64,000 bases of DNA, from positions 381,760 to 445,759 of the forward strand of contig JBBTXE010000001.1 of the NCBI GenBank assembly GCA_038062455.1. The letters are read 5' to 3'. Below, in pieces: positions 3,082-51,025 of the stretch (positions are counted from its first letter, which is position 1; the number at the start of each line of letters is the position of its first letter). Source of the stretch: Patescibacteria group bacterium (GTDB lineage Bacteria; Patescibacteriota; Microgenomatia; UBA12405). The notes below the pieces were generated by a model. That model searched no databases. It had not been told where the DNA came from and worked only from the letters and a program-made list of their open reading frames with translations. A program made the position numbers and the translations under genes.

Positions 3082-4647
3082 TTGATAACTGCCATGAAAT
3101 ACATAGCCTATTGCAGAAAGTCCACTGATGAAAAAGACAAGCAAGTTTTGTCAATTGATGCTCAAATAGCAGAACTTAAAGAGTTTGCCAAGAAGCAAAA
3201 CTTGGAAATTTTAGATTTTGTAGTAGAATCTCGCACAGCCAAAGTCCCGGGGCGACCATTGTTTAACGAAATCCTCGTGCGAATTGAGAAAGGTGAAGCT
3301 CAAGGAATTGTCTCTTGGCACCCTGACCGTTTAGCCAGGAATAGTGTGGATGGTGGAAAAATAATCTACTCACTTGATACTGGGAAGCTAGTTGATCTAA
3401 AATTTCCCTCATTTTGGTTTGAGAATTCACCTCAGGGTAAATTTGTACTCAATATTGCTTTTGGACAATCTAAATATTATGTAGATAATCTTAGCGAGAA
3501 TGTTAAGCGTGGAATGAGGCATAAAGTGAGAATTGGAGTCTGGCCTGTTCAAGCACCTCTTGGCTATTTAAATGACAAAAATACTAAAACGATAGTTATT
3601 GACCCTGTAAGATCCAAAATAACCAAAAAGGTTTTTGAGATGTTTGAGTCGGGAAAGCATTCTTTTACCTCAATTTCAGAATATTTGTTTAAACTAGGCA
3701 TAACTACTCGATTGGGGAGAAAACTTAATCCCGATACCATAAAAAGAATGCTTTCAAACAGATTTTACTTAGGTATTCTTAATTACAAAGGAGAGTTACA
3801 TAAAGGAATTCATAAACCCATTATTTCAAAAACGCTTTTTGATTCTGTCCAAAAGCAAATAGTTAAGTTTGAACGACCCAGAGAACATGGTCACGATTTT
3901 CCCTTTGTTGGTTTGGCTAAATGTGGTGAGTGCGGAGCTTCAATTACCGGTGAAGAACATGCTAGAAACTATAAAAATGGGAATTCTCAAACATTTGCAT
4001 ACTATAGATGTACTAAAAAACTTGGGAAATGCAGTCAAAAATACATTTCTCAAGAAGAATTTGAGCATCAATTAAAAGAAGAGTTACTTGATGTTGCCAT
4101 TCCTCAGGGCTGGTGGAGTGATTGGCTAGCTTGGGTTGAAAGAGACAAAATTAACGAGACAAAACTTGCAAGTCAAAGAGTTGTTGAGGTTGGAGAAGAA
4201 ATGCAGGAAGTTGATAGAAAACTAAACAAACTCCTTGATACTTATTTAGACTCAGTGGTTGATGAAGAGCAATACAAGGCAAAGAAAAATGAATTATTTG
4301 AACAAAAACTAAAACTTCAGGAAAAAATATCAAAAATTCAGAGTGGTGGTTCAAGTTGGCTCGAACCTTTCGAAGAGTTCTTAAAAAGCTCAATAAATTG
4401 CGGAAAAATCGCGCTTGGAAAAAATAATTTGCAAGAATTAAGGATTCTTGCAAGAAATGCCGGCTCGAACTTCTTTCTTTCTGAAAAACGCCTTTCTTTT
4501 GTCCCCAATTTGGGCTTTGATTCGGTCAAATCTTGGCGTGGCAGTCGGCCATCTGCCACCGCCTTCTCTGCGAAATCTGAAAGTGTGAGCCGTGAGAGAC
4601 TCGAACTCTCGACCAATCGCTTAAGAGGCGATTGCTCTACCGACTGA
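3082..4647 (+). CDS. large serine recombinase (resolvase/invertase N-terminal catalytic domain + recombinase domain + zinc ribbon + coiled-coil); the C-terminal tail reads through IR-B and into tRNA-Lys
   Basis: YCRKSTDEKDKQ holds the catalytic-Ser motif of serine recombinases. CGECG...YYRCTKKLGKC is a zinc ribbon typical of large serine recombinases, followed by a coiled-coil C-terminus. The stop codon falls only inside the tRNA (4645-4647), so the last ~45 aa are probably read-through. Confidence 0.75.
   Translation: MITAMKYIAYCRKSTDEKDKQVLSIDAQIAELKEFAKKQNLEILDFVVESRTAKVPGRPLFNEILVRIEKGEAQGIVSWHPDRLARNSVDGGKIIYSLDTGKLVDLKFPSFWFENSPQGKFVLNIAFGQSKYYVDNLSENVKRGMRHKVRIGVWPVQAPLGYLNDKNTKTIVIDPVRSKITKKVFEMFESGKHSFTSISEYLFKLGITTRLGRKLNPDTIKRMLSNRFYLGILNYKGELHKGIHKPIISKTLFDSVQKQIVKFERPREHGHDFPFVGLAKCGECGASITGEEHARNYKNGNSQTFAYYRCTKKLGKCSQKYISQEEFEHQLKEELLDVAIPQGWWSDWLAWVERDKINETKLASQRVVEVGEEMQEVDRKLNKLLDTYLDSVVDEEQYKAKKNELFEQKLKLQEKISKIQSGGSSWLEPFEEFLKSSINCGKIALGKNNLQELRILARNAGSNFFLSEKRLSFVPNLGFDSVKSWRGSRPSATAFSAKSESVSRERLELSTNRLRGDCSTD
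4485..4587. repeat. IR-B right arm, abutting the tRNA-Lys 3' end
   Basis: Reverse complement of 2946-3050. Confidence 0.8.
4584..4602. repeat. 19-bp direct repeat copy within the tRNA-Lys 3' end (attR-like)
   Basis: Identical to 1068-1086. Confidence 0.6.
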
Positions 4648-4658
4648 GCTAACGGCTC
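4586..4658 (-). tRNA. tRNA-Lys (anticodon CTT)
   Basis: Cloverleaf read from the reverse complement: acceptor GAGCCGT/ACGGCTC, D-arm GCTCAGTCGGTAGAGC, anticodon loop CTCTTAA, T-arm GAGAGTTCGAGTCTCTC. Confidence 0.8.
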
Positions 4659-4661
4659 GTG

Positions 4662-4733
4662 TGCGCCTAGGGGGAATCGAACCCTCATCACTAGTTCCGA
4701 AGACTAGGACTCTATCCGTTGAGCTATAGGCGC
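4662..4733 (-). tRNA. tRNA-Arg (anticodon TCG)
   Basis: Reverse complement gives acceptor GCGCCTA/TAGGCGC, anticodon stem CTAGT with loop CTTCGGA, and T-loop TTCGATT. Confidence 0.7.
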
Positions 4734-4750
4734 CATTATAACGAATATTA

Positions 4751-4826
4751 GGTATCCCCAGCAGGGATCGAACCTGCGGCCTTCTCCTTAGAGGGGAGAC
4801 GCTCTATCCAACTGAGCTATGGGGAC
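4751..4826 (-). tRNA. tRNA-Arg (anticodon TCT)
   Basis: Reverse complement gives acceptor GTCCCCA/TGGGGAT, D-arm GCTCAGTTGGATAGAGC, anticodon loop CCTCTAA, and T-arm GCAGGTTCGATCCCTGC. Confidence 0.75.
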
Positions 4827-4880
4827 AAATGTTAATGTAAAACAAGAGTATTTTACCAATTATATTGATAATATTTATTT

Positions 4881-4962
4881 TTCAATAGATAATACGTAGA
4901 GCCGCTGTGGTGAAATTGGTATACACGTACGCTTTAGGAGCGTATGCCGAAAGGTGTGGAGG
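4881..4962 (+). tRNA. tRNA-Leu (anticodon TAG), type II with long variable arm
   Basis: Acceptor GCCGCTG/CAGCGGC, anticodon loop TTTAGGA, a 13-nt variable arm, and T-loop TTCGACT. Confidence 0.75.
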
Positions 4963-5002
4963 TTCGACTCCTCTCAGCGGCACTAAAATGTTAAACTGAT
5001 TC

Positions 5003-28178: not shown

Positions 28179-28529
28179 CTAAATTTTCAATTTTGAACTC
28201 CTAATTATTTTAGAGAAAATCAAAAGTATTTGCTTTGTTTCACTATACACCTCCCGTATCTTCTCTTTACTATCATTTTCAGCTCTTGCCAATAGTCTCA
28301 ACCAATGCAATGTCTCTTTTATTTCTTTTCTGGCAATACCCATTTTATGAATAAAATCTTTCTTGCTTTCTGATTCTGTCGCCTCACAATAATTTGCCCC
28401 AATTGATCCAGTAGAACCAACTAACTGATTAATTATTCTCGAATTTATCGGGCTCAATTTCATTGTTTTTACCAAATCAATCACCGTCTCTCCCAATTTT
28501 GCCGTCCGTTCTTCCAAGTCAAATTCCAT
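28179..28529 (-). CDS. four-helix-bundle protein (23S rRNA intervening-sequence protein family)
   Basis: The sequence is IGANYCEATESESKKDFIHKMGIARKEIKETLHWLRL. It closely parallels the paralog at 46948-47313 (NIAEGFSRRS..EKKQFYYLSLGSLTEVQNQM). Confidence 0.6.
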   Translation of the reverse strand: MEFDLEERTAKLGETVIDLVKTMKLSPINSRIINQLVGSTGSIGANYCEATESESKKDFIHKMGIARKEIKETLHWLRLLARAENDSKEKIREVYSETKQILLIFSKIIRSSKLKI

Positions 28530-28606: not shown

Positions 28607-30886
28607 TTAATATTCTCTCCACCCCGATAATAATTTAGTTAATTTTCCCGGCATATTAAAAATAAAATCCGGCCGATACTTGACCGCCACTGCCGGACTG
28701 GCATTATTATCTTCCTTAACCGTATAACTCCTGTTTATCCTCACATTCTTCTCCTTCACTGAATATAAAATCCCATTTACCACTAGCTGCGTATTACTGT
28801 TTCCACCGATGTTTATCCCTCCGTCAGCCACATAAATTCCATCCAGCTGATTAACTCCGGCCTCAACCGTAATACCACCGCTGACTATCACCATCAAAAA
28901 CTTTCCCGCCGGTACTGCCACATTACTGCTGACGGTTAAACCTCCATCAACAAACACTACTCCGGTACTGCCGGCCCCGGCAATACTGGTATTGGTTACC
29001 CCTTGGCCATGATTTAGAAAATACCGGCTATATAAATACTGATAATTATAACCCTCATCCGCCACAATATTGTCGACAATCCGCCAATTATTAGGCCAGC
29101 CATATTGAGACGCATCATTCCAGCCATTGGTATTATAGTAAGTTGTCGAGGCCACGACACTATTATTTGACCCTCCGATTCCGGCATTATCTATTGTCAG
29201 AGTCGACGATGCCGTTACCGGCACTCCGCTTCTGATTCCGCTTCGCGCCTTCACTCCGCCGCCCCAAACCTGAAACCAGTTTTCCTGATCCCGGATAAAA
29301 GAAAAATCAATTCGACTGGATTCATTGGTGGAATAGGCCGATACTTTACTGCTAACGCTAAACTGACTGCTGCCGGGACAATAGGTGGTGCCAACGCCAA
29401 GATCAATCCATCGGGTAAAACGGCCGCTGCCGCTGATATCCCCATCGGGATTGGCCACATTCCCGCCATTAAAAATCGGCAAATAACTTTGACTCCAGAT
29501 CAAATCGCCGCCGCTAAAACTGGCCGGTGTCGACACATTCACCGTCACGTCATTACCCCCGGACATATTGGTAAAAATCAAAGAATTAAAATTCAGATTA
29601 CTGCCGGCCGTCACTGTAAATCCGGTATTATTGCAGGCCTGTCCCGCCGATCCGTCATAAAGTTTTCCCGACACCGGCACTAAACAATCCCACACTTTCC
29701 AGGAATAGATACTATCCACCCACCCCGAACTGGAATAGATGTCTTCAGCTAAAAATGCCAAAGGGTAAGTCGAAGCGCTATTATTCCCACTGCTAAAATC
29801 AACCGTCACACTGGCCGTCAACCCAACCCCCGCGCTGGTACCCAAACTTAGGTTATAAATATTTCCATTCCACCTCATTTGGACTGTTTGAATTTGGTCA
29901 GCTCCGTCATCGTCAGTCACCCTCGCCTCAAAACGAACCCGGCGGGGCAGGGGATCACTATAAAAAACCGGCTTGCATATTTGATTCCGATTCCCCGCGT
30001 CCCAGGACACTACCGTTCCGCTTGAGTTTTTCAAAACCACGATACTTACCGAAGGAATACTATTCAGCCTAAAATACCCCCGACTCGACCAACCACCAAT
30101 ATCTGTCCCGCAAGTGGTGTTCACCGCCCTCACCCGCCAGGAATACGCGCTTCCCATAATTAACGAACCGGTTCTGATTGATGTCGAAGTAGTTGTTCCC
30201 GTCCAGGCCACACTATTGCCGGCGTCCAATACTTGAGCCTCATAATAATCGGTCAACGCCGGCACGCTATTCCACACCAACGTCGCCGTCGTTCCCGGTG
30301 AAACCACTACCGGATTCGCTAAAGTCCCAATCGGCGACACAATTGCCGGCGCCGCCGGCGCCCCATTATCGGCATTGCTGCAATTTCCCCCACAATCCAA
30401 CGCCTGCCCGCACCTTGGGCTACAAACCACACATTCCTTGCAAGCCACAGTATTCGTCCAACTTAATACGTTGTCACACAAGGTCGAACAAGTACAACTT
30501 TCTGTAGTGCTACCGCAGTTCTGGCTGCAGGAAATAGTTGAATTTATACACACCGCATCATCGCAGGTCCAACACCCTGAAGTTGCAAAAGTATATTCCG
30601 CCCCACAAGCGAGTTGGGTACAAGTATCACTACACTTTGAAATACACCTACTAAGATGACAACAACCGCCGTTACATTCTGCCCAAAAAGCACACACAGA
30701 AGTCCCACTCTGAGTAGTGCTTATCGTTATACATTGAGAAGTCAACGGGTTCCATGTGCAAGTGACGGACGTACTTTCAAAGGGTCCACTACCATTACAC
30801 CGCAATGTGGCAAAACTCGGAATCCGAACCCAACCAAAAAGCCAAATCAGGATCAATAATATCAACCAAAAACACCGCTTAGTCAT
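28607..30886 (-). CDS. large secreted Cys-rich surface protein (signal peptide, ~40-Cys N-terminal module, beta-helix-like Gly/Asn/Ser-rich C-terminus)
   Basis: 759 aa. N-terminal signal helix. Residues ~30-170 are packed with Cys (CxxC / CC pairs). Confidence 0.4.
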   Translation of the reverse strand: MTKRCFWLILLILIWLFGWVRIPSFATLRCNGSGPFESTSVTCTWNPLTSQCITISTTQSGTSVCAFWAECNGGCCHLSRCISKCSDTCTQLACGAEYTFATSGCWTCDDAVCINSTISCSQNCGSTTESCTCSTLCDNVLSWTNTVACKECVVCSPRCGQALDCGGNCSNADNGAPAAPAIVSPIGTLANPVVVSPGTTATLVWNSVPALTDYYEAQVLDAGNSVAWTGTTTSTSIRTGSLIMGSAYSWRVRAVNTTCGTDIGGWSSRGYFRLNSIPSVSIVVLKNSSGTVVSWDAGNRNQICKPVFYSDPLPRRVRFEARVTDDDGADQIQTVQMRWNGNIYNLSLGTSAGVGLTASVTVDFSSGNNSASTYPLAFLAEDIYSSSGWVDSIYSWKVWDCLVPVSGKLYDGSAGQACNNTGFTVTAGSNLNFNSLIFTNMSGGNDVTVNVSTPASFSGGDLIWSQSYLPIFNGGNVANPDGDISGSGRFTRWIDLGVGTTYCPGSSQFSVSSKVSAYSTNESSRIDFSFIRDQENWFQVWGGGVKARSGIRSGVPVTASSTLTIDNAGIGGSNNSVVASTTYYNTNGWNDASQYGWPNNWRIVDNIVADEGYNYQYLYSRYFLNHGQGVTNTSIAGAGSTGVVFVDGGLTVSSNVAVPAGKFLMVIVSGGITVEAGVNQLDGIYVADGGINIGGNSNTQLVVNGILYSVKEKNVRINRSYTVKEDNNASPAVAVKYRPDFIFNMPGKLTKLLSGWREY

Positions 30887-30922: not shown

Positions 30923-33022
30923 CTACTTTCCTAAGGAGAAAGTTGCCCCGCCATGAAAAAAGTTAAATGACACAAAATCCGAAACGAAATAATTTTCATT
31001 TGAAGAAATATCAGGTATCACCTCTGCAATTTTTTCGGCTATAATATTCCTTCCGTAATAATCCAAAAAAAGTTGCGTCAAATTTCCATTTCTTATCTCA
31101 CCTCCATCCGTGTACAACAAAGCATTAAAACATTTATTTAGTGGGGTAATGTGTGTGTGCATCCATCGGATTTGCGAATCGCTAGATCCATATATTAATC
31201 CAAAAACAACTATTTTCCCCTCGTTTTCTGCCAGCTTGCCCTGCAATTGATCAAACGACACCAACTCGCTCTGAAGAGATCCGGGCACATAAGTAGTGCT
31301 CCTTGACGAAGAAGTCATTGCTATTGAGGTAAAACTGGCGTCATTTATGCCCTCATAACCGGTAACCACCGGCAGTACCACCCTATTCCCGCCGATTTCC
31401 ACTCCAAAAAAGGAAATGGTAACCCGTGTTTCAGCATCATAATTTACCTGCCGCCCGCCAAGATAAATCCCCTGCCAAGAACTGTGTAAAGATGTACCGA
31501 TCAAAGAATCACCGGACCGATATTCACTAGTTCCTACTTGCATCAAACCCAAAGTGCGATCCCTTACTCCCATCTTTTCAGCCAATGAATGTCCATCAAT
31601 ACCAATTGGAAAGATATACGTTGATTCATTATATGTCTGGTCAGGAATAAAAGCGTTTTGATTCACCCAATCCCGATACTCCCGCTCCGGCATATTTAAA
31701 AAAGCTTCCGCATTTTGTTCAATCTTCACCATTTCCGTTAGATCAGCGGCCACCTTATATTCCCCATCCGTTATCTTTCCTGTCTTCGGGTCCACGTATC
31801 TTAAGGCCCTACCGGTATTTTTGTCCGCCACTTGATAGACCAGTTGACTCCCTTCCCCCACGGTAGTTAGCTCTTCGTTTGGTCCAACGGTGACAAAAAG
31901 CGGCCGATCTCCAACCGGATCCTCCTGCCCCTCGGTTGGTAATTGTCTTAAACCACCGTTTACTAAATCCAGTGGCGGGCACAATAATTGCCCCGCATAA
32001 TTTCCTTTGCCTTTGGTATCCACACAAACCACATTTGCTCCACTTCCGGGCAATGGAACTTTGGCCAAACTATTCCCCGGCCCGCCAATTTCCTGCTGCT
32101 GCACCACCATCATTTTTGCCCATAAATTGACCCAATTAGCAATATCCTTTTCTCCTCGACTATAATCACCGCTATCATATTTCGTTTGAGTTTCCGGATC
32201 AGTTATTGTCGGATTAAGATCAATCGGCGGTGCCCCGTATTCCGATGTCACTGCTGGAGCCACCATTGTCTCCGTTACCGACACCGCAGTTGAAATTCCG
32301 CCTGGCACCGGAGCCGTCTCCGACGGCAAAATTAGCGGCTGGACCCTGGTACAAGCAACTTCAGTTGCTCCAACCAACAAAGTAATCCCCGTCACCGCTG
32401 CAAAAGCCTTTCCAAGTTTACCACTTGAAAGACGATCCATGGCCCTGTCGAAGGGAAGCTCTGGTCCTGTTGGTGATACTCCCCAATATTCATCTCTCTT
32501 TTTTATTCTATCGCCTTTTTTTATTTTACTTTGCTCTGGATGCAAAACATCAACTTTTATTTCCTCTATTCCCCGGCATCTTAATTTCCACCAGCCGTTT
32601 TCAATCTTATCCACCAAAGCAAAATATTCTCTTTTCCCACCGGTCAATCCATACCCTAAATTTACCACTTCATCAGTCCCATTCACCCTTCTTTTAAGTC
32701 TTTGTATCTCCAGTCTATGCTCATCAACCAATGCCTTTCTTGCCACTGCGTCAAACCACTCCACCACCCCTTTTTTTTCTTCCCGATAACTACCAAAACC
32801 CAACCTTCCGTTGCTTTTTACCCACCGCCCCAACTTTGTTTTTATCTCATCGCCTCTATCGCCGCCCATTAAATCCATTAAAGCATTACCCACTGTCTGC
32901 GAAGGTGACATTCCCGGAAATTCCCTGGTGCTTACCCGCTCAGGACAAATAGGTTTGACAACCACCGGTTTCTCTTGACCAAATGCCCAATATGGAAACT
33001 CTCTTCTTCTTTCCTGTTTCAT
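30923..33022 (-). CDS. hypothetical large single-pass membrane protein (cytoplasmic N-terminal ~200 aa, TM helix, extracellular C-terminal domain)
   Basis: 699-aa ORF. The TM helix is AFAAVTGITLLVGATEVA. No recognisable catalytic motif. Confidence 0.35.
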   Translation of the reverse strand: MKQERRREFPYWAFGQEKPVVVKPICPERVSTREFPGMSPSQTVGNALMDLMGGDRGDEIKTKLGRWVKSNGRLGFGSYREEKKGVVEWFDAVARKALVDEHRLEIQRLKRRVNGTDEVVNLGYGLTGGKREYFALVDKIENGWWKLRCRGIEEIKVDVLHPEQSKIKKGDRIKKRDEYWGVSPTGPELPFDRAMDRLSSGKLGKAFAAVTGITLLVGATEVACTRVQPLILPSETAPVPGGISTAVSVTETMVAPAVTSEYGAPPIDLNPTITDPETQTKYDSGDYSRGEKDIANWVNLWAKMMVVQQQEIGGPGNSLAKVPLPGSGANVVCVDTKGKGNYAGQLLCPPLDLVNGGLRQLPTEGQEDPVGDRPLFVTVGPNEELTTVGEGSQLVYQVADKNTGRALRYVDPKTGKITDGEYKVAADLTEMVKIEQNAEAFLNMPEREYRDWVNQNAFIPDQTYNESTYIFPIGIDGHSLAEKMGVRDRTLGLMQVGTSEYRSGDSLIGTSLHSSWQGIYLGGRQVNYDAETRVTISFFGVEIGGNRVVLPVVTGYEGINDASFTSIAMTSSSRSTTYVPGSLQSELVSFDQLQGKLAENEGKIVVFGLIYGSSDSQIRWMHTHITPLNKCFNALLYTDGGEIRNGNLTQLFLDYYGRNIIAEKIAEVIPDISSNENYFVSDFVSFNFFHGGATFSLGK

Positions 33023-33096
33023 ATTAACTTCTGATTTGCCATTTACCCTATAATATTAAGAAATTATACCACCACTGTGGGTATTTTCAACTACCT

Positions 33097-33133
33097 AAAA
33101 TCCTATAGAAAAATATACATACTCAATACCTAT
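33097..33133. repeat. conserved 37-bp inter-module motif (copy 4): aaaatcctatagaaaaatatacatactcaatacctat
   Basis: Near-identical copies at 34742, 36163 and 37778, always just past the 3' end of a nucleotidyltransferase (AbiEii-like) gene. Confidence 0.7.
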
Positions 33134-33187
33134 ATTTCCCGAAACCGAACCGCTCAATAGTCTCATATGTATCGTAACCTACTCCGT

Positions 33188-33938
33188 CTATTTCCTAATT
33201 TCGGCAAAATTTAACCCTGACAGATAACTATCAATTTCTTCGTCATTCAAGCCTTCGGAAAAGTAAATTGATTGAAGCTCATTTTGCTTGTCACCCTTCG
33301 CTAATCGCCAATTACTTTTGATATTCCGGGAACTAACCGGTTTCCTGATTTCTTTCTTTTTAACCAACCTAATCACTTCGTCCAAATCTATCGCCAGTTT
33401 CTTATTGATCATTGAAAAATCGTAAAAATCACGGTATCTAACTCTGTCATTCATAGCCCGAATTTTTTCGGCTACAATTTCAGCAATATCCATAACCATC
33501 ACTTTGGCTTCCACCCCATATTGATTGTGATAAATCATTTCCCTGGGAGGCAAAACAACATTCTGAAGAAAATCAATTTCTACCTTAAGTGAATTTGGCT
33601 GGGCCAGGGGACCGGTATACAACAATCTTTCAATTTTATAGGTAGCATCAGAAACATAGAACCGACTTCACCTCCTCAAGATCAATTCCCGCCCGATTAG
33701 TCGAAAAGTCCAAATCTTCTGAAAACCTAAACTGCGGCAAATAGGTGTGATACAAAGCGGTACCACCCTTAAATATTAACTTTGTTTTTAACACTGAACC
33801 ATAGATTATCTTACACACCAGTGCCAAAAAATAATCCTTTTCGGCGATAGCTAAAGGATACTTAAGTTGACGGTTAAGAAGAGTTAAGGTAACTTTATCC
33901 AATAATTCGATTATCATAGTAAATTCGCCACTTAGCAT
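33188..33938 (-). pseudogene. AbiEii-like nucleotidyltransferase toxin, split by a frameshift into 96-aa and 145-aa ORFs
   Basis: The N-terminal fragment has FKGGTALYHTY...RFSEDLDFS. The C-terminal fragment aligns with the C-terminus of the intact paralog at 34790-35509. The frames differ across 33625-33648. Confidence 0.5.
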
Positions 33939-34668
33939 TAAATGTCTTTGATTCCTTCGTGAATCGGGATAAGCCTTTATTTTCCGCCAATATTCGGTAA
34001 AGCCCTTGGGTATTTACCCCCAACTGATCGAGAAAAAAACCAATTTTGCGTCTGATCGTCATATCAGATCTTAAAGCATAATTCTGTAACTTATTTAAAT
34101 CCAAACTTTCCTGATACTCTCTTAATTTTTCAAAAACTACACTGGCCGAAGTATAACTCTTATCCAGATATAGATAATCAATCAAAGCTTTTTCAACATC
34201 GGCAATTCTTACTATTTTTCCGGCCTCTATCTTTTGGGAAAAACCAAAAAACATATTCTCTTTAACTTTGGCAAATTTAAAGACAAAATCATCAAAAATG
34301 TATTTCTTGGAATCGGCAGTAGTCACTGACACAATAGTCTTAGAATATTGGTCAAACATATGATAATAATTAAGAGCATAGGAAAGACTAATATAAGAAC
34401 TCTTATTTAAAGCATTGGCGATAAGCATTAGCGAATTATCGTTTTGGAAACGAGAGCTTAAGTTTTCAATAACCAGATATAATCCCCGCTTAATTCGTTT
34501 CAACCAACCGGCCTTGGTTAGTTTTTGGATACGATTATGAGCCGACAAATTTGAATACTCAATTCTAAAAATAGTCATTAGATCATCAATACCCACAATT
34601 CGGCCGTATTTTAGGATTATCTGCTCGATTAAGTTAGTATCCTTTTCGGTTAAAATTGTAGTTTTCAT
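33895..34668 (-). CDS. AbiEi-like antitoxin / transcriptional regulator (wHTH N-terminus)
   Basis: KLTKAGWLKRIKRGLYLV is the AbiEi-type 'RGLY' wHTH motif. It is paired with the downstream nucleotidyltransferase gene. Confidence 0.5.
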   Translation of the reverse strand: MKTTILTEKDTNLIEQIILKYGRIVGIDDLMTIFRIEYSNLSAHNRIQKLTKAGWLKRIKRGLYLVIENLSSRFQNDNSLMLIANALNKSSYISLSYALNYYHMFDQYSKTIVSVTTADSKKYIFDDFVFKFAKVKENMFFGFSQKIEAGKIVRIADVEKALIDYLYLDKSYTSASVVFEKLREYQESLDLNKLQNYALRSDMTIRRKIGFFLDQLGVNTQGLYRILAENKGLSRFTKESKTFNAKWRIYYDNRIIG

Positions 34669-34741
34669 GGGTAAATATACACCTTTATTGATATATAACT
34701 GTAACTATTATATACAATATTGTCAAGAAAGAACAGATTCT

Positions 34742-34778
34742 AAAATCCTATCGAAAAAGATACATACTAATTACTTAT
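34742..34778. repeat. conserved 37-bp inter-module motif (copy 3)
   Basis: aaaatcctatcgaaaaagatacatactaattacttat. Confidence 0.7.
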
Positions 34779-34789
34779 TAATAACCCTA

Positions 34790-35509
34790 CTACATATTTC
34801 TACCTATCTCCCCTAAAAGACTTTTTTTTAAGTCGCGAACCATCATCGCCTGACTTCTCGGCAGAAACAAAGCCAACTCTGTCTCGAAATTAATTTCCTT
34901 CTTATTTAACAATTGTCTGACTTTTACCAATTGTTTCTTTTGGTTGGGAGACAATAGGTTGGCCCGAAGCATAAAATATAGATCATAAAAATCACGGGCT
35001 TTCTGTCTATCCAGTAACGCTGCCACTTTACTATCAACCAAATTCGCCGTCGCCAAACTCTTAATAAAATATGGGGCGGTAAAATCACTTTCAACTGTAA
35101 ACGCCTCACCTTCAACCATATCTTTTCGAAAAGATATTTCAAAGTGAATTTTTATCGGATCACCAACATGGCTCAAAATCACGATTCCTAAATATCCACC
35201 ACTGGTAGTTTTACTTTCTTCAATTTCTACTCCGATCCCTTCTCTCGATATATCCACCAAAACATCCTCTATAACCTGTTCCCAAGTCTGAAGTTTATGC
35301 ACTGTGGTATCGAAATCAAGATCTTCTGAAAAACGAGGACTTCGATAAAGAATTCTTAAGGCTGTTCCTCCTTTAAAATACAAATTACTTGACTGCTTCT
35401 TTTGGTATAAGTAACTTAACAATAAATGTTGGACATATTCCCGTCTGATATTTAATTCCGAAGTTTGAAATTTAACCGATGTTTTTTGTAAAAAAGACAG
35501 ACTAAGCAT
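34790..35509 (-). CDS. AbiEii/AbiGii-family nucleotidyltransferase toxin
   Basis: YFKGGTALRILYRSPRFSEDLDFD is the GGT...R.SEDLDF signature of the AbiEii (DUF1814) NTase family. Overlaps the upstream AbiEi gene by 8 nt. Confidence 0.65.
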   Translation of the reverse strand: MLSLSFLQKTSVKFQTSELNIRREYVQHLLLSYLYQKKQSSNLYFKGGTALRILYRSPRFSEDLDFDTTVHKLQTWEQVIEDVLVDISREGIGVEIEESKTTSGGYLGIVILSHVGDPIKIHFEISFRKDMVEGEAFTVESDFTAPYFIKSLATANLVDSKVAALLDRQKARDFYDLYFMLRANLLSPNQKKQLVKVRQLLNKKEINFETELALFLPRSQAMMVRDLKKSLLGEIGRNM

Positions 35510-36092
35510 ATTTATTAATTAATTTTATTAAAGATTTATTGTTAAATAAATTAGCATAAAACTGAATCTTTTTTTTATTCACCGACGATAAATCCAATCT
35601 CTCCAACCAAGCTCTTTTATTAAGTGACACCAGATACAAATAATCGATCACCGCCTTTTCCACTTCAGCCATCAAAAACCTTTTTTCATCTATAATCTTT
35701 AATTCATAACCGGTGTAAGCCTCCGGTTTAATTGTCGAATAGCTATATGTTTTGTCACTGGTTACAAATTCCCGCGTCGTTTTAGTGGTGGCGGAAGTAA
35801 CTTTGTAAACCATTTCCGGAACTAGATTATAATAAGCCAAAGCATACTCAAAAGAGACATAGGAAGGTCGATACAATCGATTGGCAATTTCCAGTTCTGA
35901 CGGTAAATCATTCTTTAGAGAATAAAGACCTCGTTTTATTTGACTAAACAAACCCTCTTTCAATCCTTTTTCCAAATAATAAAGGGATTGCCTTGAAGAT
36001 AAATTCAATAATTCACCTAATTCGCGAGCAGAAAATACTCTGGTATTACTTTCCAGTAAAATTTTTCTAATACTTAAACTTGATATAGCCAT
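35502..36092 (-). CDS. AbiEi-like antitoxin
   Basis: ARELGELLNLSSRQSLYYLEKGLKEGLFSQIKRGLYSL is the N-terminal wHTH of AbiEi. Confidence 0.55.
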   Translation of the reverse strand: MAISSLSIRKILLESNTRVFSARELGELLNLSSRQSLYYLEKGLKEGLFSQIKRGLYSLKNDLPSELEIANRLYRPSYVSFEYALAYYNLVPEMVYKVTSATTKTTREFVTSDKTYSYSTIKPEAYTGYELKIIDEKRFLMAEVEKAVIDYLYLVSLNKRAWLERLDLSSVNKKKIQFYANLFNNKSLIKLINKYA

Positions 36093-36162
36093 TTCATTTA
36101 TTACTTAAATAACTGTAATTAATGAAACAAGTATGGATTAATATTACCTTAATGTCAACCCT

Positions 36163-36199
36163 AAAATCCTCTAGAAAAAGATACATACTAGATACTTAT
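36163..36199. repeat. conserved 37-bp inter-module motif (copy 2)
   Basis: aaaatcctctagaaaaagatacatactagatacttat. Confidence 0.7.
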
Positions 36200-36205
36200 C
36201 TAAAA

Positions 36206-37054
36206 TTATCCGCTCAAATACTTCTTACTTTGATTATAATTATTATAAAAGTTTTCCACATACCCATCCAAAAGCAGGGGATTATCGATAAACGGCAATA
36301 AGTCTTGTTTAAAATATTGTTTACTGACTGTCGTTGCCATTTCCACCTTGTCATCAATTAAACTAATCAACTGACCTATCGAATAAGAACTTTTTAACAA
36401 ATCATTTAATCGATTTATATTGGGATATACTTTTTTATCTAAAAACCACAATAAATCAAAATAATCTCTACCTTTAATTACCCTAATATTTTCTTTTCCC
36501 AACAACCTCTGTCTTGTTAAAATAGTGGCGATTTTGCTAGCCATCAATGAAGGCAGGTCGTAGTGTGTCACCAAATAGTTAAAATTGTTAATATTTCTCA
36601 GAGTCGTAAGTTCACCATATATTTCTGAAACCATCGGCGATAAATCAATCTTTACATATAAGAGATCACTTTCGGCCGGTGTCGCCAAACCTAAATCTCT
36701 CAATACCGGAAACTTTAGAAGCAATTGCCAACCTTTTTGCAATACAGACACCGCTAAACCGTTATACATAAACTCGGTTTTAAAATAAGTTTCAACTGTC
36801 TTTTTCAAAATAGTCACGTCAACCGGTTTTTTTAGATCAAAATCCAGATCCTCAGACAGTCGATTTAAACCAAAACAATGTCGCAAACAAGTTCCGCCGG
36901 TAAACACAAACACCTTATTATAAATTTGGTTTAAATAAATAAAATTAAGAACATATATTTGTAAAAACTCTTTTAGCAAACTCCTGATATACAAATTCGA
37001 CTTATTCTGAATCCCTTGTTTATTTAAAAGCGATCTCATTTCTTCAATAATCAC
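36206..37054 (-). CDS. AbiEii-family nucleotidyltransferase toxin (paralog)
   Basis: FTGGTCLRHCFGLNRLSEDLDFD. Stop/start overlap with the upstream AbiEi gene. Confidence 0.6.
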   Translation of the reverse strand: MIIEEMRSLLNKQGIQNKSNLYIRSLLKEFLQIYVLNFIYLNQIYNKVFVFTGGTCLRHCFGLNRLSEDLDFDLKKPVDVTILKKTVETYFKTEFMYNGLAVSVLQKGWQLLLKFPVLRDLGLATPAESDLLYVKIDLSPMVSEIYGELTTLRNINNFNYLVTHYDLPSLMASKIATILTRQRLLGKENIRVIKGRDYFDLLWFLDKKVYPNINRLNDLLKSSYSIGQLISLIDDKVEMATTVSKQYFKQDLLPFIDNPLLLDGYVENFYNNYNQSKKYLSG

Positions 37055-37689
37055 TTCATTGTCTCCTTAAGGTAAACTACTAAATTAGTAAATTTCCCCA
37101 TCCCCGAAAGCTCCACTAAATATTTCAAATTTTCAAAATCGCTCACTGTTAAATCCTCTAAATTTAGCCTGAAAGAATCGATAACTTCTTGGTTAATTTC
37201 CGGCACTCTCCACAATCTAAAATATAAATAATCAAACAAAGCCTTCGTTTTTGTCGCCTCTTTTATTTCATATCCGGATTTAGAAACAATATTAAAACCA
37301 ATAAACAATTTATCTTTTATGTTTGAATATAAAAAAACACCTAATTTATTGTTGTAAACCCTAGTCTTTTTTCGGGTGACCGAAGTTATCGAGAACACCG
37401 CTTCGGACAATATTCCATATTTTTGCAGGACATATTCTCCGCTCAAATACGACGGTTTTTTAAGAATATTGGCTACAAATTCACTATAACTCTGTTTGTC
37501 ACCACATTGCGAATAATATTCCCGAGTTACATATATTCCTTTTTTTAATTGAATCAACCTCCCGCTATCTATCCACCGGGCAACATTTGCCGAAACAGCA
37601 TCATCACTACCCCCAATTACCTCTTTCAGAGTATTTTTGTCAAAAAAACTGGCAGAGGTTAACTTCGATAAATTACTAATCCTGTTCAT
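37051..37689 (-). CDS. AbiEi-like antitoxin (paralog)
   Basis: LIQLKKGIYVTREYY is a KRGxY-type wHTH. Its C-terminal domain resembles the other AbiEi copies (ALFDYLYF). Confidence 0.5.
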   Translation of the reverse strand: MNRISNLSKLTSASFFDKNTLKEVIGGSDDAVSANVARWIDSGRLIQLKKGIYVTREYYSQCGDKQSYSEFVANILKKPSYLSGEYVLQKYGILSEAVFSITSVTRKKTRVYNNKLGVFLYSNIKDKLFIGFNIVSKSGYEIKEATKTKALFDYLYFRLWRVPEINQEVIDSFRLNLEDLTVSDFENLKYLVELSGMGKFTNLVVYLKETMK

Positions 37690-37777
37690 ACTTATTTCAC
37701 AATTAATAGATAAAACATACTAATTGTGAAATATGATAATACTTTTATACTACTATGTCAATAACCCCAATCTTGAA

Positions 37778-37811
37778 ATCTTACAGAAAAAGATACATAC
37801 TCAATACTTAT
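37778..37811. repeat. conserved inter-module motif (copy 1, slightly diverged)
   Basis: aatcttacagaaaaagatacatactcaatacttat. Confidence 0.6.
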
Positions 37812-37831
37812 TTTCCCCCAACTTTATCAGC

Positions 37832-38449
37832 TTAAGATAAACTGACGGCAATAAGTTTTTGTCTAATCGTTTCATCATCAACGTCAAAGCCGGGCAAATA
37901 TTCAACCGATTCGGAATAATCAAGGTCTTGGTAATAGGCAAGCTGTTCCCGAAAAAGTTTTTCATCAAATTCGTTTTTATAAATGGAAATGGCTTTGACA
38001 ATAAGTTCTTTTAAGGAAAAAGATTGAAAAATAAAGAAAAGATCAACATAATCTTTCCATTTAGCGCGGCGTCCGAGGGCAAAAGCTTTCATAGCCGCGA
38101 TAGTCAAAGGGTCGGGTAAAGAAATAATGTCATTAAAATTAACTTGATGTTCAATCGGATATGGGTAACCGTAAAAGGTCATTTTGACGTTGTCAACTAA
38201 TAAAGTAAATTCTGTTCTCGTTTCAATCAAGATGCGATTAATTGTATGGCCCTGTTTAATATCAGAACGAATCCGTAGGCTATCAAATGATTTATCGGTA
38301 AAAAGGTCAAAGTCAATTGATCGTCGATGACCTAATTGTAAAGCCAGGGCAGTACCACCAACCAGGTAAAAAGAGGAAGAAAAAATTTTTACCAGAGGTA
38401 AAAGATCAGTTTGGGTTTTGACAAGAATATTAGGATACATATTTGGCAA
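37832..38449 (-). CDS. nucleotidyltransferase-fold protein (AbiEii-like / minimal NTase toxin-like)
   Basis: VGGTALALQLGHRRSIDFDLF has the GGTAL...R.S.D.D pattern. Confidence 0.45.
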   Translation of the reverse strand: MPNMYPNILVKTQTDLLPLVKIFSSSFYLVGGTALALQLGHRRSIDFDLFTDKSFDSLRIRSDIKQGHTINRILIETRTEFTLLVDNVKMTFYGYPYPIEHQVNFNDIISLPDPLTIAAMKAFALGRRAKWKDYVDLFFIFQSFSLKELIVKAISIYKNEFDEKLFREQLAYYQDLDYSESVEYLPGFDVDDETIRQKLIAVSLS

Positions 38450-38977
38450 AATAGTAAGTAAAATAATTTTTTGCTAAATAGTGAAGATTGCCGCGTTTTT
38501 GTAAAGCAAGTTTACTAAAAATATCTGCTAAAACTTTCGTCCCCAGCAAAGTACGGAGTTCTTGAAAATTATCCCAAGAACCGCAATTAAGAATCGCCTC
38601 AGTAATGGCTTCAGGCGAGAGATGGTCATAGTTTTTGGTGTACCAAATAAGGCCGGGGTTGTGGCGGATAATATCTCTAGCTTTGGTTAAGTCTGCATCC
38701 ATAAATCTAGTATACAACTTCAACTTTTTACAGAATCTAACGGAAAATTTAATACCAGTGACCAAAAAGCCAAAGATTTTTTGTTCCATCTGCCCCGAGG
38801 GATTGACAATGCTACCTCTCTTATTCCCATTTTGCCATAATTAGACATCGCCCAATCCGTTGCCTCTTTACTACCAAAGTTTAAAACTTGAGAAACAATT
38901 AACTTTCGATCCGCCACAATGTCAATTATATTAGTATCGTAGGACCAAAGTACTGATTTTACCGACTGAGGCAACAT
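38430..38977 (-). pseudogene. probable frameshifted partner gene of the 37832-38449 NTase (85-aa + 119-aa overlapping ORFs)
   Basis: Two ORFs overlap by 70 nt in different frames, consistent with one ~190-aa gene carrying a frameshift. No family assigned. Confidence 0.3.
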
Positions 38978-38997
38978 AATTTATTATATCATTTTCT

Positions 38998-46947: not shown

Positions 46948-47313
46948 TTAATAATTATTTAAAAATTTAATTAACGAATTAATCAATTTACTAACACCAA
47001 CTGACAATTCGGCTAATTTTTTAAAATCTTCAATCTTAAGATAACCCACATCCCTTCCAATCAACATCTGGTTTTGGACTTCAGTTAACGATCCTAAAGA
47101 TAAATAATAAAACTGTTTTTTTTCTAAATTTGATCTTCGGGAAAACCCTTCAGCAATATTTGAAGAAACTGATACAGCTGCCCGTCTAATTTGATCCGAT
47201 AACCCCCTCACCTCATATTTCGGAAATCCTAAAGTGGCCCTATATATCCCCAAAACCATTTTATGAGCTTCTTGCCAGGCCTTTAAATCAGTAAATGATT
47301 TTATTTTCTCCAT
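46948..47313 (-). CDS. four-helix-bundle protein (23S rRNA IVS protein family), paralog of 28179-28529
   Basis: The sequence is FTDLKAWQEAHKMVLGIYRATLGFPKYEVRGLSDQIRRAAVSVSSNIAEGFSRRS. Confidence 0.65.
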   Translation of the reverse strand: MEKIKSFTDLKAWQEAHKMVLGIYRATLGFPKYEVRGLSDQIRRAAVSVSSNIAEGFSRRSNLEKKQFYYLSLGSLTEVQNQMLIGRDVGYLKIEDFKKLAELSVGVSKLINSLIKFLNNY

Positions 47314-49894: not shown

Positions 49895-51025
49895 ATGTTT
49901 TCGCCTGTTCTTACCATCAATAATCGAATTCTAAAAAATATTGGCGCCATCGAAGCCGCCCGGGCCATTATCGACGAGGCTCCACTGATTCCCGCCTACG
50001 AGCGCCAATTCCAGCAGGAAGCCATTATTAGAACCGTCCACTTTGGTACCCGTATCGAAGGCAACGACCTAACCTATCAGGAAGTCGCCAAATTAGTCGA
50101 AGGTAGAGACATCACCGCCGGGGAACGCGATATTCAGGAAGTCATTAATTATCGAAATTGCATGAGCTACCTTGAAGAACTATGGGCGCTCTTTGACGCC
50201 GGTATGCCTCTACCTGAAGAGAAATTTAACCCAAATTTGGACAAAAAAGACCGTATCTTTTTTTACAGTGAAACCATTATCAAAAAAATCCACGCCTTAA
50301 CCACCGACAAAATTATTCCCGCCACCGAAACCGGCAAATACCGCCGCCAGCAGGTAGTTTTGAAAAACACCCGCACCGGTGAAATTGCCCACCGCCCCCC
50401 ACCGGCCATCGAAGTACCCTACCTCATGTCTGATTTTATCGATTGGATCAATAACCCCGAATCCCGGGAAATCCACCCGGCAATAAGAAGCGCCATTGCC
50501 CATTATATTTTAGTCGCCATTCATCCTTTTATTGAAGGTAATGGCCGCTGTTCCCGGGCCTTTGCCATTCTCCCTCTCTATGTTGAAGGTTATGATATCC
50601 GCCGTCTATTTTCCCTGGAAGAATACTTTGACCGCAACGCCGAAAATTATTACAACACTATCCAATCTACCCATGAACTAAACTCCGATCTTTTCCGCCG
50701 GGATCTTTCCCGCTGGATCGAATATTTTACCGAAGCTCTCGGCGCCGAACTCTCCCGAATCAAAGACAAAGTCCAATCCCTCTCCCGTGACTTAAAATTC
50801 AAACAAAAACTCGGGGGAAAACAAGTCCACTTGACCGAACGCCAAATTAAATTAGTCGAATATATGCAGCAATTCGGTGGCTTACGGATGCCTGATGCTA
50901 AATCTTTACTTCCCATGGTCAGCGATGACACTATCTGGCGCGATCTAAAGAAACTCATTGACGACAAAGTCTGTGTCAAAAAAGGTTCCACTAAAGGCGC
51001 CTACTACACCCTCGCCAGTATTTAG
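49895..51025 (+). CDS. Fic-domain protein (AMPylase/phosphocholinase family) with a C-terminal wHTH-like domain
   Basis: HPFIEGNGRCSRAF is the canonical Fic motif HPFx(D/E)GNGR. An N-terminal TRIEGN may be an inhibitory-helix-like motif (uncertain). Confidence 0.75.
   Translation: MFSPVLTINNRILKNIGAIEAARAIIDEAPLIPAYERQFQQEAIIRTVHFGTRIEGNDLTYQEVAKLVEGRDITAGERDIQEVINYRNCMSYLEELWALFDAGMPLPEEKFNPNLDKKDRIFFYSETIIKKIHALTTDKIIPATETGKYRRQQVVLKNTRTGEIAHRPPPAIEVPYLMSDFIDWINNPESREIHPAIRSAIAHYILVAIHPFIEGNGRCSRAFAILPLYVEGYDIRRLFSLEEYFDRNAENYYNTIQSTHELNSDLFRRDLSRWIEYFTEALGAELSRIKDKVQSLSRDLKFKQKLGGKQVHLTERQIKLVEYMQQFGGLRMPDAKSLLPMVSDDTIWRDLKKLIDDKVCVKKGSTKGAYYTLASI

Follow-up and report, generated by a model that had tools for sequence, protein, structure and literature searches.

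The stretch analysed here (the window) covers 64 kb of contig JBBTXE010000001.1, from a groundwater bacterium of the Microgenomates group within the Candidate Phyla Radiation (CPR). Four self-contained modules, numbered 1 to 4 along the direction of transcription, occupy its minus strand at 33.1-39.0 kb, and all four encode a toxin of the AbiEii family, a DUF1814 nucleotidyltransferase (NTase). Within each antitoxin-toxin pair the antitoxin gene comes first, and its stop codon overlaps the start codon of the toxin gene. The array breaks up a type IV pilus cluster, with the last pilin gene on one side and a gene encoding 699 amino acids (aa) on the other, and its GC content is 33.9%, compared with 42-45% in the flanks. 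One copy of a repeat of about 40 bp follows each of the four toxin stop codons, and the order reads pilin - module 1 - repeat - module 2 - repeat - module 3 - repeat - module 4 - repeat - 699-aa gene. Very probably, the locus represents four toxin-antitoxin cassettes of the DUF1814 class that were acquired independently and now stand in a stack; three are canonical AbiE pairs, one of them decayed, and one is of a DUF6922 type.

All coordinates of open reading frames (ORFs) given in an initial annotation of this region were confirmed. That annotation described four AbiEi/AbiEii modules, which is true of modules 2 to 4; module 1 was found to have another architecture, in which two small proteins, apparently both of the DUF6922 type, accompany a short NTase.

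NTase toxins and AbiEi antitoxins

Profile searches placed all four toxins in the AbiEii family, as had been proposed (PF08843, gathering score 22.5 bits). The toxin of module 1 is a short protein of 202 aa (37832-38440 on the minus strand, as for all features of the array; its start is the ATG at 38440 used by the gene callers) and scores 41.1 bits. The toxins of module 2 (282 aa, 36206-37054; PADLOC AbiEii, E 3.7e-31) and module 3 (239 aa, 34790-35509) score 65.1 and 93.9 bits, respectively, and the split copy of module 4 (33188-33938) is matched in two parts, at 39.2 and 52.3 bits. An alignment of the four toxins revealed the catalytic signature in every copy, namely GGT(A/C)L, R-x-S-x-D-x-D, a lysine, and (R/K)D(F/Y)xD(L/F), with the roles of the residues in the NTase catalytic core as described in PMC11375011. 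There, D-x-D forms the metal site, the lysine is catalytic, and the Ser/Thr phospho-acceptor stands two residues ahead of D-x-D. The loop containing the D-x-D motif reads RLSEDLD, RFSEDLD, RFSEDLD, or RRSIDFD, the last belonging to the module 1 toxin, in which the full set of motifs is GGTALA, RRSIDFD, K, and KDYVDL. The serine of R-x-S-x-D-x-D is the counterpart of the residue that is auto-phosphorylated in MenT/AbiEii upon antitoxin binding (PMC11375011; bioRxiv 10.64898/2026.01.19.700257). For the module 2 toxin, a total of 1252 homologues were found at E<=1e-10, many of them from the Microgenomates group, for example from Shapirobacteria and Beckwithbacteria, and the module 3 toxin gave a weak sequence match to the solved DUF1814-type chains 4o8s/4ok0 (E about 4e-5).

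Three partners proved to be AbiEi-like, in agreement with the initial annotation, and match the PADLOC AbiEi profile near full-length (E 3e-33 to 2e-44). These are the antitoxins of module 2 (212 aa, 37051-37689, E 1.7e-44), whose stop codon overlaps the toxin start as GTGA, of module 3 (196 aa, 35502-36092, E 2.2e-40), and of module 4 (257 aa, intact, 33895-34668, E 3.3e-33, profile positions 2-238 of 252). Their Pfam AbiEi_4 scores of 24.4, 22.3, and 16.6 bits lie just under the cut-off of 25, and the NCBIfam AbiEi equivalog gave 31-38 bits, far below its cut-off of 150; they are thus members of the AbiEi family and not close orthologues of characterised AbiEi proteins. The RGLY/KKGIY strings of the antitoxins and the GGTAL..RxSxDxD strings of the toxins, from which the assignment had originally been made, were found in the sequences. 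The profile searches suggested with the initial annotation were therefore in favour of it, since the NTases belong to AbiEii/DUF1814, and to no other NTase family, and three of the partners belong to AbiEi. The description of the paralogues as diverged also held, with amino-acid identities of 30-34% among the AbiEi proteins and about 23-27% among the AbiEii proteins.

Modules 2 to 4 resemble the AbiE systems of Lactococcus lactis and Streptococcus agalactiae, in which the gene for a COG5340-type winged helix-turn-helix (wHTH) antitoxin overlaps that for a DUF1814 NTase toxin, promoter palindromes serve autoregulation, and the toxin carries the motifs GGTAL, R-x-S-x-D-x-D, K, and RDFYDL. The similarity is at the family level only, however, and the system described here, known from sequence alone, differs in that three diverged paralogues stand in tandem in a CPR host. 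Mycobacterium tuberculosis offers a second parallel, with four DUF1814 toxins (MenT1-4) in one genome, non-homologous antitoxins that include the small helical MenA1, and a conserved phospho-acceptor Ser/Thr. The M. tuberculosis MenAT systems are dispersed around the chromosome, whereas the modules described here are contiguous.

In characterised relatives, the toxin nucleotidylates tRNA 3′ ends and is itself auto-phosphorylated when the antitoxin induces it (PMC7450476, PMC10435456, PMC11375011, bioRxiv 10.64898/2026.01.19.700257). By homology, the toxins of the array would add nucleotides to tRNA 3′ ends and so stop translation, and each antitoxin would bind its toxin and cause it to auto-phosphorylate the conserved serine within R-x-S-x-D-x-D. 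A toxin set free, as might happen when a phage infects, would then be expected to arrest the cell. The initial annotation had labelled the modules type IV toxin-antitoxin systems. The assignment to the AbiE class stands, but "type IV" is a historical label, and a 2026 preprint places AbiE in type VII, with antitoxin-induced auto-phosphorylation of the toxin (bioRxiv 10.64898/2026.01.19.700257).

The toxin gene of module 4 was predicted to be frameshifted, and it is indeed split by a 1-nt change into the +1 frame; the proposed site (about 33625-33648) lies slightly off, as the two frames overlap upstream of it, at 33648-33670, and position 33625 is merely the first TTG of the downstream ORF. 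The N-terminal fragment spans 33648-33938 and the C-terminal fragment 33188-33667, and these match PF08843 at profile positions 9-54 and 101-192. Because the frames overlap only at 33648-33670, altering one base in that interval would suffice to recover a protein of about 248 aa. All five assemblies that span the gene are at least 99.98% identical to the window, further spanning contigs show identical split gene calls, and the window is 100% identical to the NCBI assembly GCA_964362845.1. The same split in every covering contig, from several sequencing runs, indicates that the frameshift is not an assembly error and that it is real and fixed in the population.

Such fixation, together with the retention of family motifs on both fragments, could be taken to mean that the split gene still yields a toxin, by programmed +1 frameshifting or in the form of two functional fragments. 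This is highly improbable: inspection of the overlap (…UGU UUC UGA U…) by eye revealed no recognisable +1 slippery site, the break parts the D-x-D loop from the remaining catalytic core, and about 13 residues seem to be missing around it compared with the PADLOC profile. The most fitting reading of module 4 is that its toxin is dead and that its AbiEi antitoxin, now an orphan, survives and would persist as a repressor after the loss of the toxin to the frameshift.

Module 1 and the DUF6922 proteins

The region upstream of the module 1 toxin (38430-38977), originally described as a broken partner gene, was found to contain two intact, translationally coupled ORFs, apparently both of the DUF6922 type. 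The first encodes an 85-aa protein (38720-38977), a candidate antitoxin, and the second a 97-aa helical protein, probably of a divergent DUF6922 type (38430-38723), whose TTG start overlaps the upstream stop codon as TTGA. No match to AbiEi was obtained for either in PADLOC or Pfam. A reading of the two as one frameshifted gene was also considered, and was discarded on finding that the matches of a fused query covered its N-terminal part only.

The 85-aa protein scores 37.9 bits with PF21956 (DUF6922), whose cut-off is 27. A full-length alignment with an 88-aa DUF6922 protein from the related locus L021 gave 64% identity; the gene for the latter directly precedes that of a 205-aa NTase, itself 36% identical to the module 1 toxin. 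The kinship of the 97-aa protein is visible at the profile level only. It has no direct Pfam match, and BLASTP found no match between it and the 85-aa protein; an exhaustive HMMER search at E<=1e-3 collected a family with 150 or more cluster representatives, most of them stand-alone proteins near 90 aa in length, and PF21956 is matched by 20 of the 40 members sampled. Comparison of the alignment of this family with that of DUF6922 using hhalign gave an E value of 5.5e-5 and a probability of 66%. An AlphaFold model of the 97-aa protein is an all-helical bundle with a predicted local distance difference test score (pLDDT) of 93, which had no fold match to any solved structure; neither of the DUF6922 partners had a sequence match to any solved chain.

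Longer relatives of the 97-aa ORF carry the domain behind RHH, HTH_3, HTH_17, NikA-like, or AbiEi_4 DNA-binding domains. Fusion of a DNA-binding domain to a partner domain is the usual layout of antitoxins. On a Bacteroides fragilis plasmid, a protein with HTH_3 and DUF6922 domains (E 2.4e-21) overlaps the start of an annotated AbiEii-family NTase. The pairing with short AbiEii-like NTases elsewhere, together with the fusions to HTH and RHH domains, suggests that DUF6922 is probably an undescribed antitoxin domain for the DUF1814 NTase class, and in module 1 the two small helical proteins would stand in the place of AbiEi. No mention of DUF6922 was found in the searchable literature.

Some further occurrences touch on this module. 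In locus L018 (1686-2538), a 63-aa protein with DUF6922-like residues recognised by eye (W-S-V-D ... I-N-F-G), and with no Pfam match, precedes a 219-aa NTase, and a module 2-type AbiE pair follows immediately downstream, a second case of both module types side by side. One contig (L038) aligns to the window except for its last 23 nt (2306-2328, at about 38591 of the window), so that the alignment breaks off within the 97-aa ORF, which may reflect an error of assembly or a junction present as a minor variant. A dense stack of another composition is found on the Campylobacter plasmid p16192 (1220-3405), where a small hypothetical gene, an AbiEii-family NTase, a zeta-toxin family gene, and an MNT/HepT-like pair lie contiguously on one strand.

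The junction repeat and the order of the modules

Every cassette is an operon complete in itself, with a predicted promoter of its own. Among the sigma-70-like sites of the minus strand, the four best are found a short way before modules 2, 3, and 4 and the 699-aa gene, the last of these (TTGAAA-16-TATAAT, 33063-33090) being conserved in the orthologous locus L024. The promoters of the modules are followed, before the start codon, by palindromes with arms of 16 nt in module 2 (promoter TTGACA-17-TATCAT, operator TATTTCACAATTAGTA-N9-TATTAATTGTGAAATA, together 37693-37761), 12 nt in module 3 (TTGACA-17-CATACT, TTCATTAATTAC-N10-GTAATAAATGAA, 36093-36158), and 8 nt in module 4 (TTGACA-17-TACAGT, TATATAAT-N7-GTTATATA, 34692-34726); the last is weak, with AT-only arms. 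The operator half-sites of the three modules are alike, TTTCA(C/T)(A/T)AATTA, and the palindromes have the form to be expected of an operator at which AbiEi regulates itself. In modules 2 and 3, and weakly in module 4, AbiEi, as a wHTH antitoxin, would repress its own transcription at a module-specific palindrome. The module 2 palindrome was also found in the homologous modules of L017, L018, L019/L020, and L021 by pattern match, and of L042 by eye. Module 1 is preceded by an extended -10 element, TGATATAAT (38983-38991), which lies 5 nt before the ATG and implies a predicted transcript that is leaderless or nearly so; the DUF6922 gene of L021 has the same layout (TGGTATAAT, 5 nt, ATG).

The repeat was described initially as a conserved motif of 37 bp. 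The motif is real, and its four copies do lie at the module ends, but its length is about 40 bp (consensus ATAAGTATTGAGTATGTATCTTTTTCTATAGGATTTTAGG). Sequence comparison and profile searches placed copy A after the module 1 toxin (37772-37811), copy B after the module 2 toxin (36160-36199), copy C after the module 3 toxin (34739-34778), and copy D after the module 4 toxin and before the promoter of the 699-aa gene (33094-33133). All are in direct orientation, at a regular spacing of 1.4-1.6 kb. When a copy from the related locus L017 is included, the copies are on average 83% identical in pairwise comparison and agree throughout at 25 of 40 positions; the adjoining 15-nt flanks are about 30% identical, and paralogous module DNA 47%. 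A 16-nt core has exact matches at the four junctions only within the 64 kb, and a five-copy nhmmer profile recovered the four copies at E values of about 1e-9 to 1e-10 and, L017 excepted, found no others either in the window or across some 230 kb of related loci. Exact-pattern scans of genome, metagenome, and viral contigs gave chance matches only, without flanking motif halves, and the pattern used was too strict for the L017 variant. The distance from the repeat to the stop codon varies from 6 to 54 nt and that to the next -35 hexamer from 1 to 12 nt, which argues that the repeat is a discrete element and not part of a promoter. In none of the modules does it belong to the promoter, the operator, or the terminator.

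The folding of the repeat, which contains the T-run TCTTTTTC, gave no significant or consistent structure (z -1.3 to +0.7). No canonical terminator was found between the modules, and an Rfam scan of the window at gathering thresholds returned tRNAs only, leaving the repeat unmatched. A palindromic site for a recombinase or an operator was rejected on comparing the dyad symmetry with shuffles, a reading of the repeat as a dif-like site was set aside on the spacing of the arms, which misfits by eye, and an antisense promoter was rejected likewise: only copy A matches 9 of 12 positions on the plus strand, and the other copies do not.

The history of the modules was read from related loci. With homologues from other genomes the module 2 toxin shares 73-93% identity, but with the module 3 and module 4 toxins only about 26%. 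A module 2-type pair (73-81% identity) occurs alone in four unrelated neighbourhoods, namely in glycosyltransferase clusters, next to MBOAT genes, between PIN-AAA and RNase J genes, and after PNPase. Wherever the contig reaches upstream, these homologues keep their own promoter and palindrome; the repeat is absent beside them in all four contexts, and one of them is then followed by a normal GC-rich terminator. The occurrence of module 2 elsewhere without the repeat indicates that modules 2 to 4 are not in-place duplicates and that the repeat is foreign to the module.

Pairs of such modules recur in the relatives L017, L018, and L021, and L017 (JGI 3300008008) is the sole relative with the repeat. 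Its module 2-type toxin is 93% identical to that of the window, and its pilin genes show 68% nucleotide identity up to the stop codon of the last pilin gene. There the order is pilin - module 3 - repeat - module 2 - repeat. The module 3 block (82% identity) begins exactly at the -35 hexamer, with promoter and operator conserved, and extends to a point within the repeat; the homology of the module 2 block (88%) sets in with the repeat's first base. It is thus precisely at the repeat that L017 and the window diverge in gene order. That it marks cassette boundaries which differ between related genomes is its most informative property, and because the related genome holds the modules in a different order, the modules appear to behave like movable cassettes.

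The repeat at every 3′ boundary would mark the place where cassettes are gained, lost, and reordered. Taken as a whole, this reading (four independently acquired DUF1814 cassettes with, at their 3′ ends, what is most likely a site of gain, loss, or reordering) is favoured with moderate confidence. A narrower claim, that the repeat is itself the sequence at which cassettes exchange, is made more tentatively, and seems possible without quite being probable. The agent would be either a site-specific recombinase encoded at an unlinked locus, or homologous recombination on the 40-bp identity after DNA uptake; transformation-driven shuffling of cassettes by recombination is documented in chromosomal integrons (PMC12614218) and offers a precedent for the second route. 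That the repeat is the recombination site of an undescribed cassette-capture system of the CPR is more doubtful still, and on present evidence rather unlikely.

Several observations weigh against these interpretations. The repeat has no dyad symmetry beyond that of shuffled controls, and in this it is unlike most recombinase core sites. No recombinase was found next to the array, the sole one in the window being a large serine recombinase 28 kb away by a tRNA cluster. The only comparator with the repeat is L017, whose contig ends inside the second copy, and neither an empty site nor a third array was found among the loci compared. In both arrays the first cassette has no repeat on its left, a joint for which these readings do not account. 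All 18 contigs with the exact pilin sequence show the same arrangement (18/18), and with one fixed arrangement in all contigs of the source population no ongoing mobility is seen. The alignment of the four toxins, moreover, did not make a third catalytic carboxylate evident in the module 1 toxin. As regards function, the AbiE system of S. agalactiae gave no phage protection in Escherichia coli (bioRxiv 10.64898/2026.01.19.700257), so that a defence role cannot simply be assumed here; for the array it is plausible and not assured.

The main rival for the repeat is a regulatory or insulating element, such as an unconventional terminator, a processing site, or a host-factor site, kept alike by selection or gene conversion and with no role in the arrival of the cassettes. 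Its position between the stop codon and the next -35 hexamer at every junction, with the T-run, would suit such an element, as would an upstream GAAA(A) that could pair with the T-run in three copies, the lack of a canonical terminator between the modules, and the location of the fourth copy, ahead of a chromosomal gene of the ordinary sort that has a promoter to itself. Against this stand the folding results, the variable spacing, which speaks against a fixed promoter element, and the homologous modules that work elsewhere without the repeat, in one case with a normal terminator. Function alone would also leave the breakpoint between L017 and the window on the repeat unexplained. This explanation is regarded as rather unlikely. 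In-place tandem duplication, in which a single AbiE module would have been copied along with the repeat behind it and the coding regions would then have diverged for a long time while the repeat remained under constraint, could account for the shared architecture and similar operator half-sites of modules 2 to 4 and for the regular spacing of the direct repeats. It was already disfavoured by the relationships described above, since module 2 is closer to modules of other genomes than to modules 3 and 4 and its relatives lack the repeat; the antitoxin of module 1 is, in addition, of a different family, and modules 2 and 3 stand in reversed order in L017. Duplication in place is accordingly very improbable.

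The array might also be read as an integron-type cassette array, or as attC sites clustered without an integrase, the repeat being the attC site; this is likewise very improbable. The resemblance is real: small cassettes point in one direction, a conserved repeat stands at the 3′ end of each, own-promoter toxin-antitoxin cassettes are found in chromosomal integrons, and the order of cassettes varies between relatives. The repeat of 40 bp is, however, non-palindromic, all cassettes belong to one toxin superfamily, and the first cassette lacks a repeat on the left. Of the features of attC, an imperfect palindrome that folds as a single strand, neither was found, as dyad symmetry was within the shuffle range and the z-scores of folding were about 0, and inspection of the junction sequences by eye revealed no RYYYAAC...GTTRRRY boxes. 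No tyrosine recombinase, IntI included, was found among the larger ORFs of the window, the only recombinase being the large serine type at 3082-4647. A further likeness is to the pdif modules of Acinetobacter plasmids, which are small, often encode toxin-antitoxin systems, are bounded by short conserved sites, and occur in different orders across replicons. The pdif sites are 28-bp dyad-symmetric XerC/XerD sites in alternating orientation, whereas the repeats of the array are direct and without dyad symmetry.

Genomic setting and significance

The pilus cluster that the array interrupts comprises, upstream, PilB, PilT, PilC, a prepilin peptidase, and seven pilin-like genes, and downstream, beyond two uncharacterised genes of 699 aa (30923-33022, minus strand) and 759 aa (28607-30886, minus strand), PilM. 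The two are co-directional with the pilins and have no Pfam or PADLOC match. Over its C-terminal 60% or so, the 699-aa protein shares 84-91% identity with proteins encoded by higher-GC contigs of apparently unrelated organisms, one of them binned as Syntrophaceae, which suggests a horizontally shared domain. On one of these higher-GC contigs (L022, a different locus from the window), a toxin-antitoxin pair of DUF433 and DUF5615/Mut7-C (PIN-like) proteins lies just upstream of the homologue of this domain (1992-2608). As a route to an empty site, the 699-aa gene yielded three homologues only, of which two have just this C-terminal domain in common with it and one, in L024, is a true orthologue; the 162 nt upstream of it contain the conserved promoter and no clear repeat. 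Two genes of the PF05635 family ("23S rRNA intervening sequence protein", a four-helix bundle) also lie in the pilus cluster, at 28179-28529 and 46948-47313 (both minus strand), one of them between PilB and PilT and the other after the 759-aa gene.

The initial annotation had called the array a defence island. With pilus genes on its flanks and a single further defence-type gene about 11 kb away, the term is too strong, and the array is better described as a low-GC insert in a type IV pilus cluster. No cluster of unrelated defence systems was found in the window; the only other PADLOC match is SoFic (E 6.5e-46), a Fic-domain protein encoded just beyond the pilus cluster (49895-51025, plus strand). 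In L021, a Fic protein is encoded about 4.5 kb upstream of the DUF6922-NTase module.

The large serine recombinase mentioned above (3082-4647, plus strand) is a protein of 521 aa with Resolvase, Recombinase, and Zn_ribbon_recom domains, and the 3′ end of its gene overlaps a tRNA-Lys gene on the opposite strand. Within the same tRNA cluster (4585-4983), between tRNA-Arg and tRNA-Leu, lies a tRNA with the amber suppressor anticodon CUA (4751-4826, minus strand; labelled tRNA-Pyl by ARAGORN, and scoring 65.9 bits with the Rfam tRNA model). TAG ends 20 of the 60 long ORFs in the window and is therefore a normal stop codon here, and the suppressor tRNA may belong to a mobile element. The recombinase may be the integrase of an integrated element that also carries this tRNA. 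No link was found between the recombinase and the repeat of the array.

In its gene content, the array is an ordinary member of a known family, denser than usual, and the enrichment of AbiE is already in the literature: AbiE/MenAT systems belong to the small number of defence-type systems that are enriched in host-dependent lineages with small genomes, Patescibacteria and the DPANN archaea among them (PMC12988326). Two features are new: partners of the DUF6922 class, and the arrangement in cassette-like units whose junctions carry a non-palindromic repeat; the second rests on a single comparator (L017). If the repeat were only regulatory, the locus would be an ordinary though unusually dense toxin-antitoxin stack. 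The link of DUF6922, as a probable antitoxin domain, to the DUF1814 toxins would widen the known range of partners of these enzymes.

How lineages with small genomes acquire and reshuffle such systems is a question for which this locus provides a concrete and testable case, with cassette boundaries defined at the level of single bases, a discrete repeat at the junctions, and two related genomes that differ in order at one site. Should a capture system indeed operate here, it would stockpile toxin-antitoxin or defence cassettes with their own promoters at one chromosomal site, in the manner of an integron, and that site would lie inside a type IV pilus cluster, which is a DNA-uptake cluster. 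It would do so without attC hairpins or an adjacent IntI, possibly through transformation combined with short-homology recombination, or through an unlinked recombinase.

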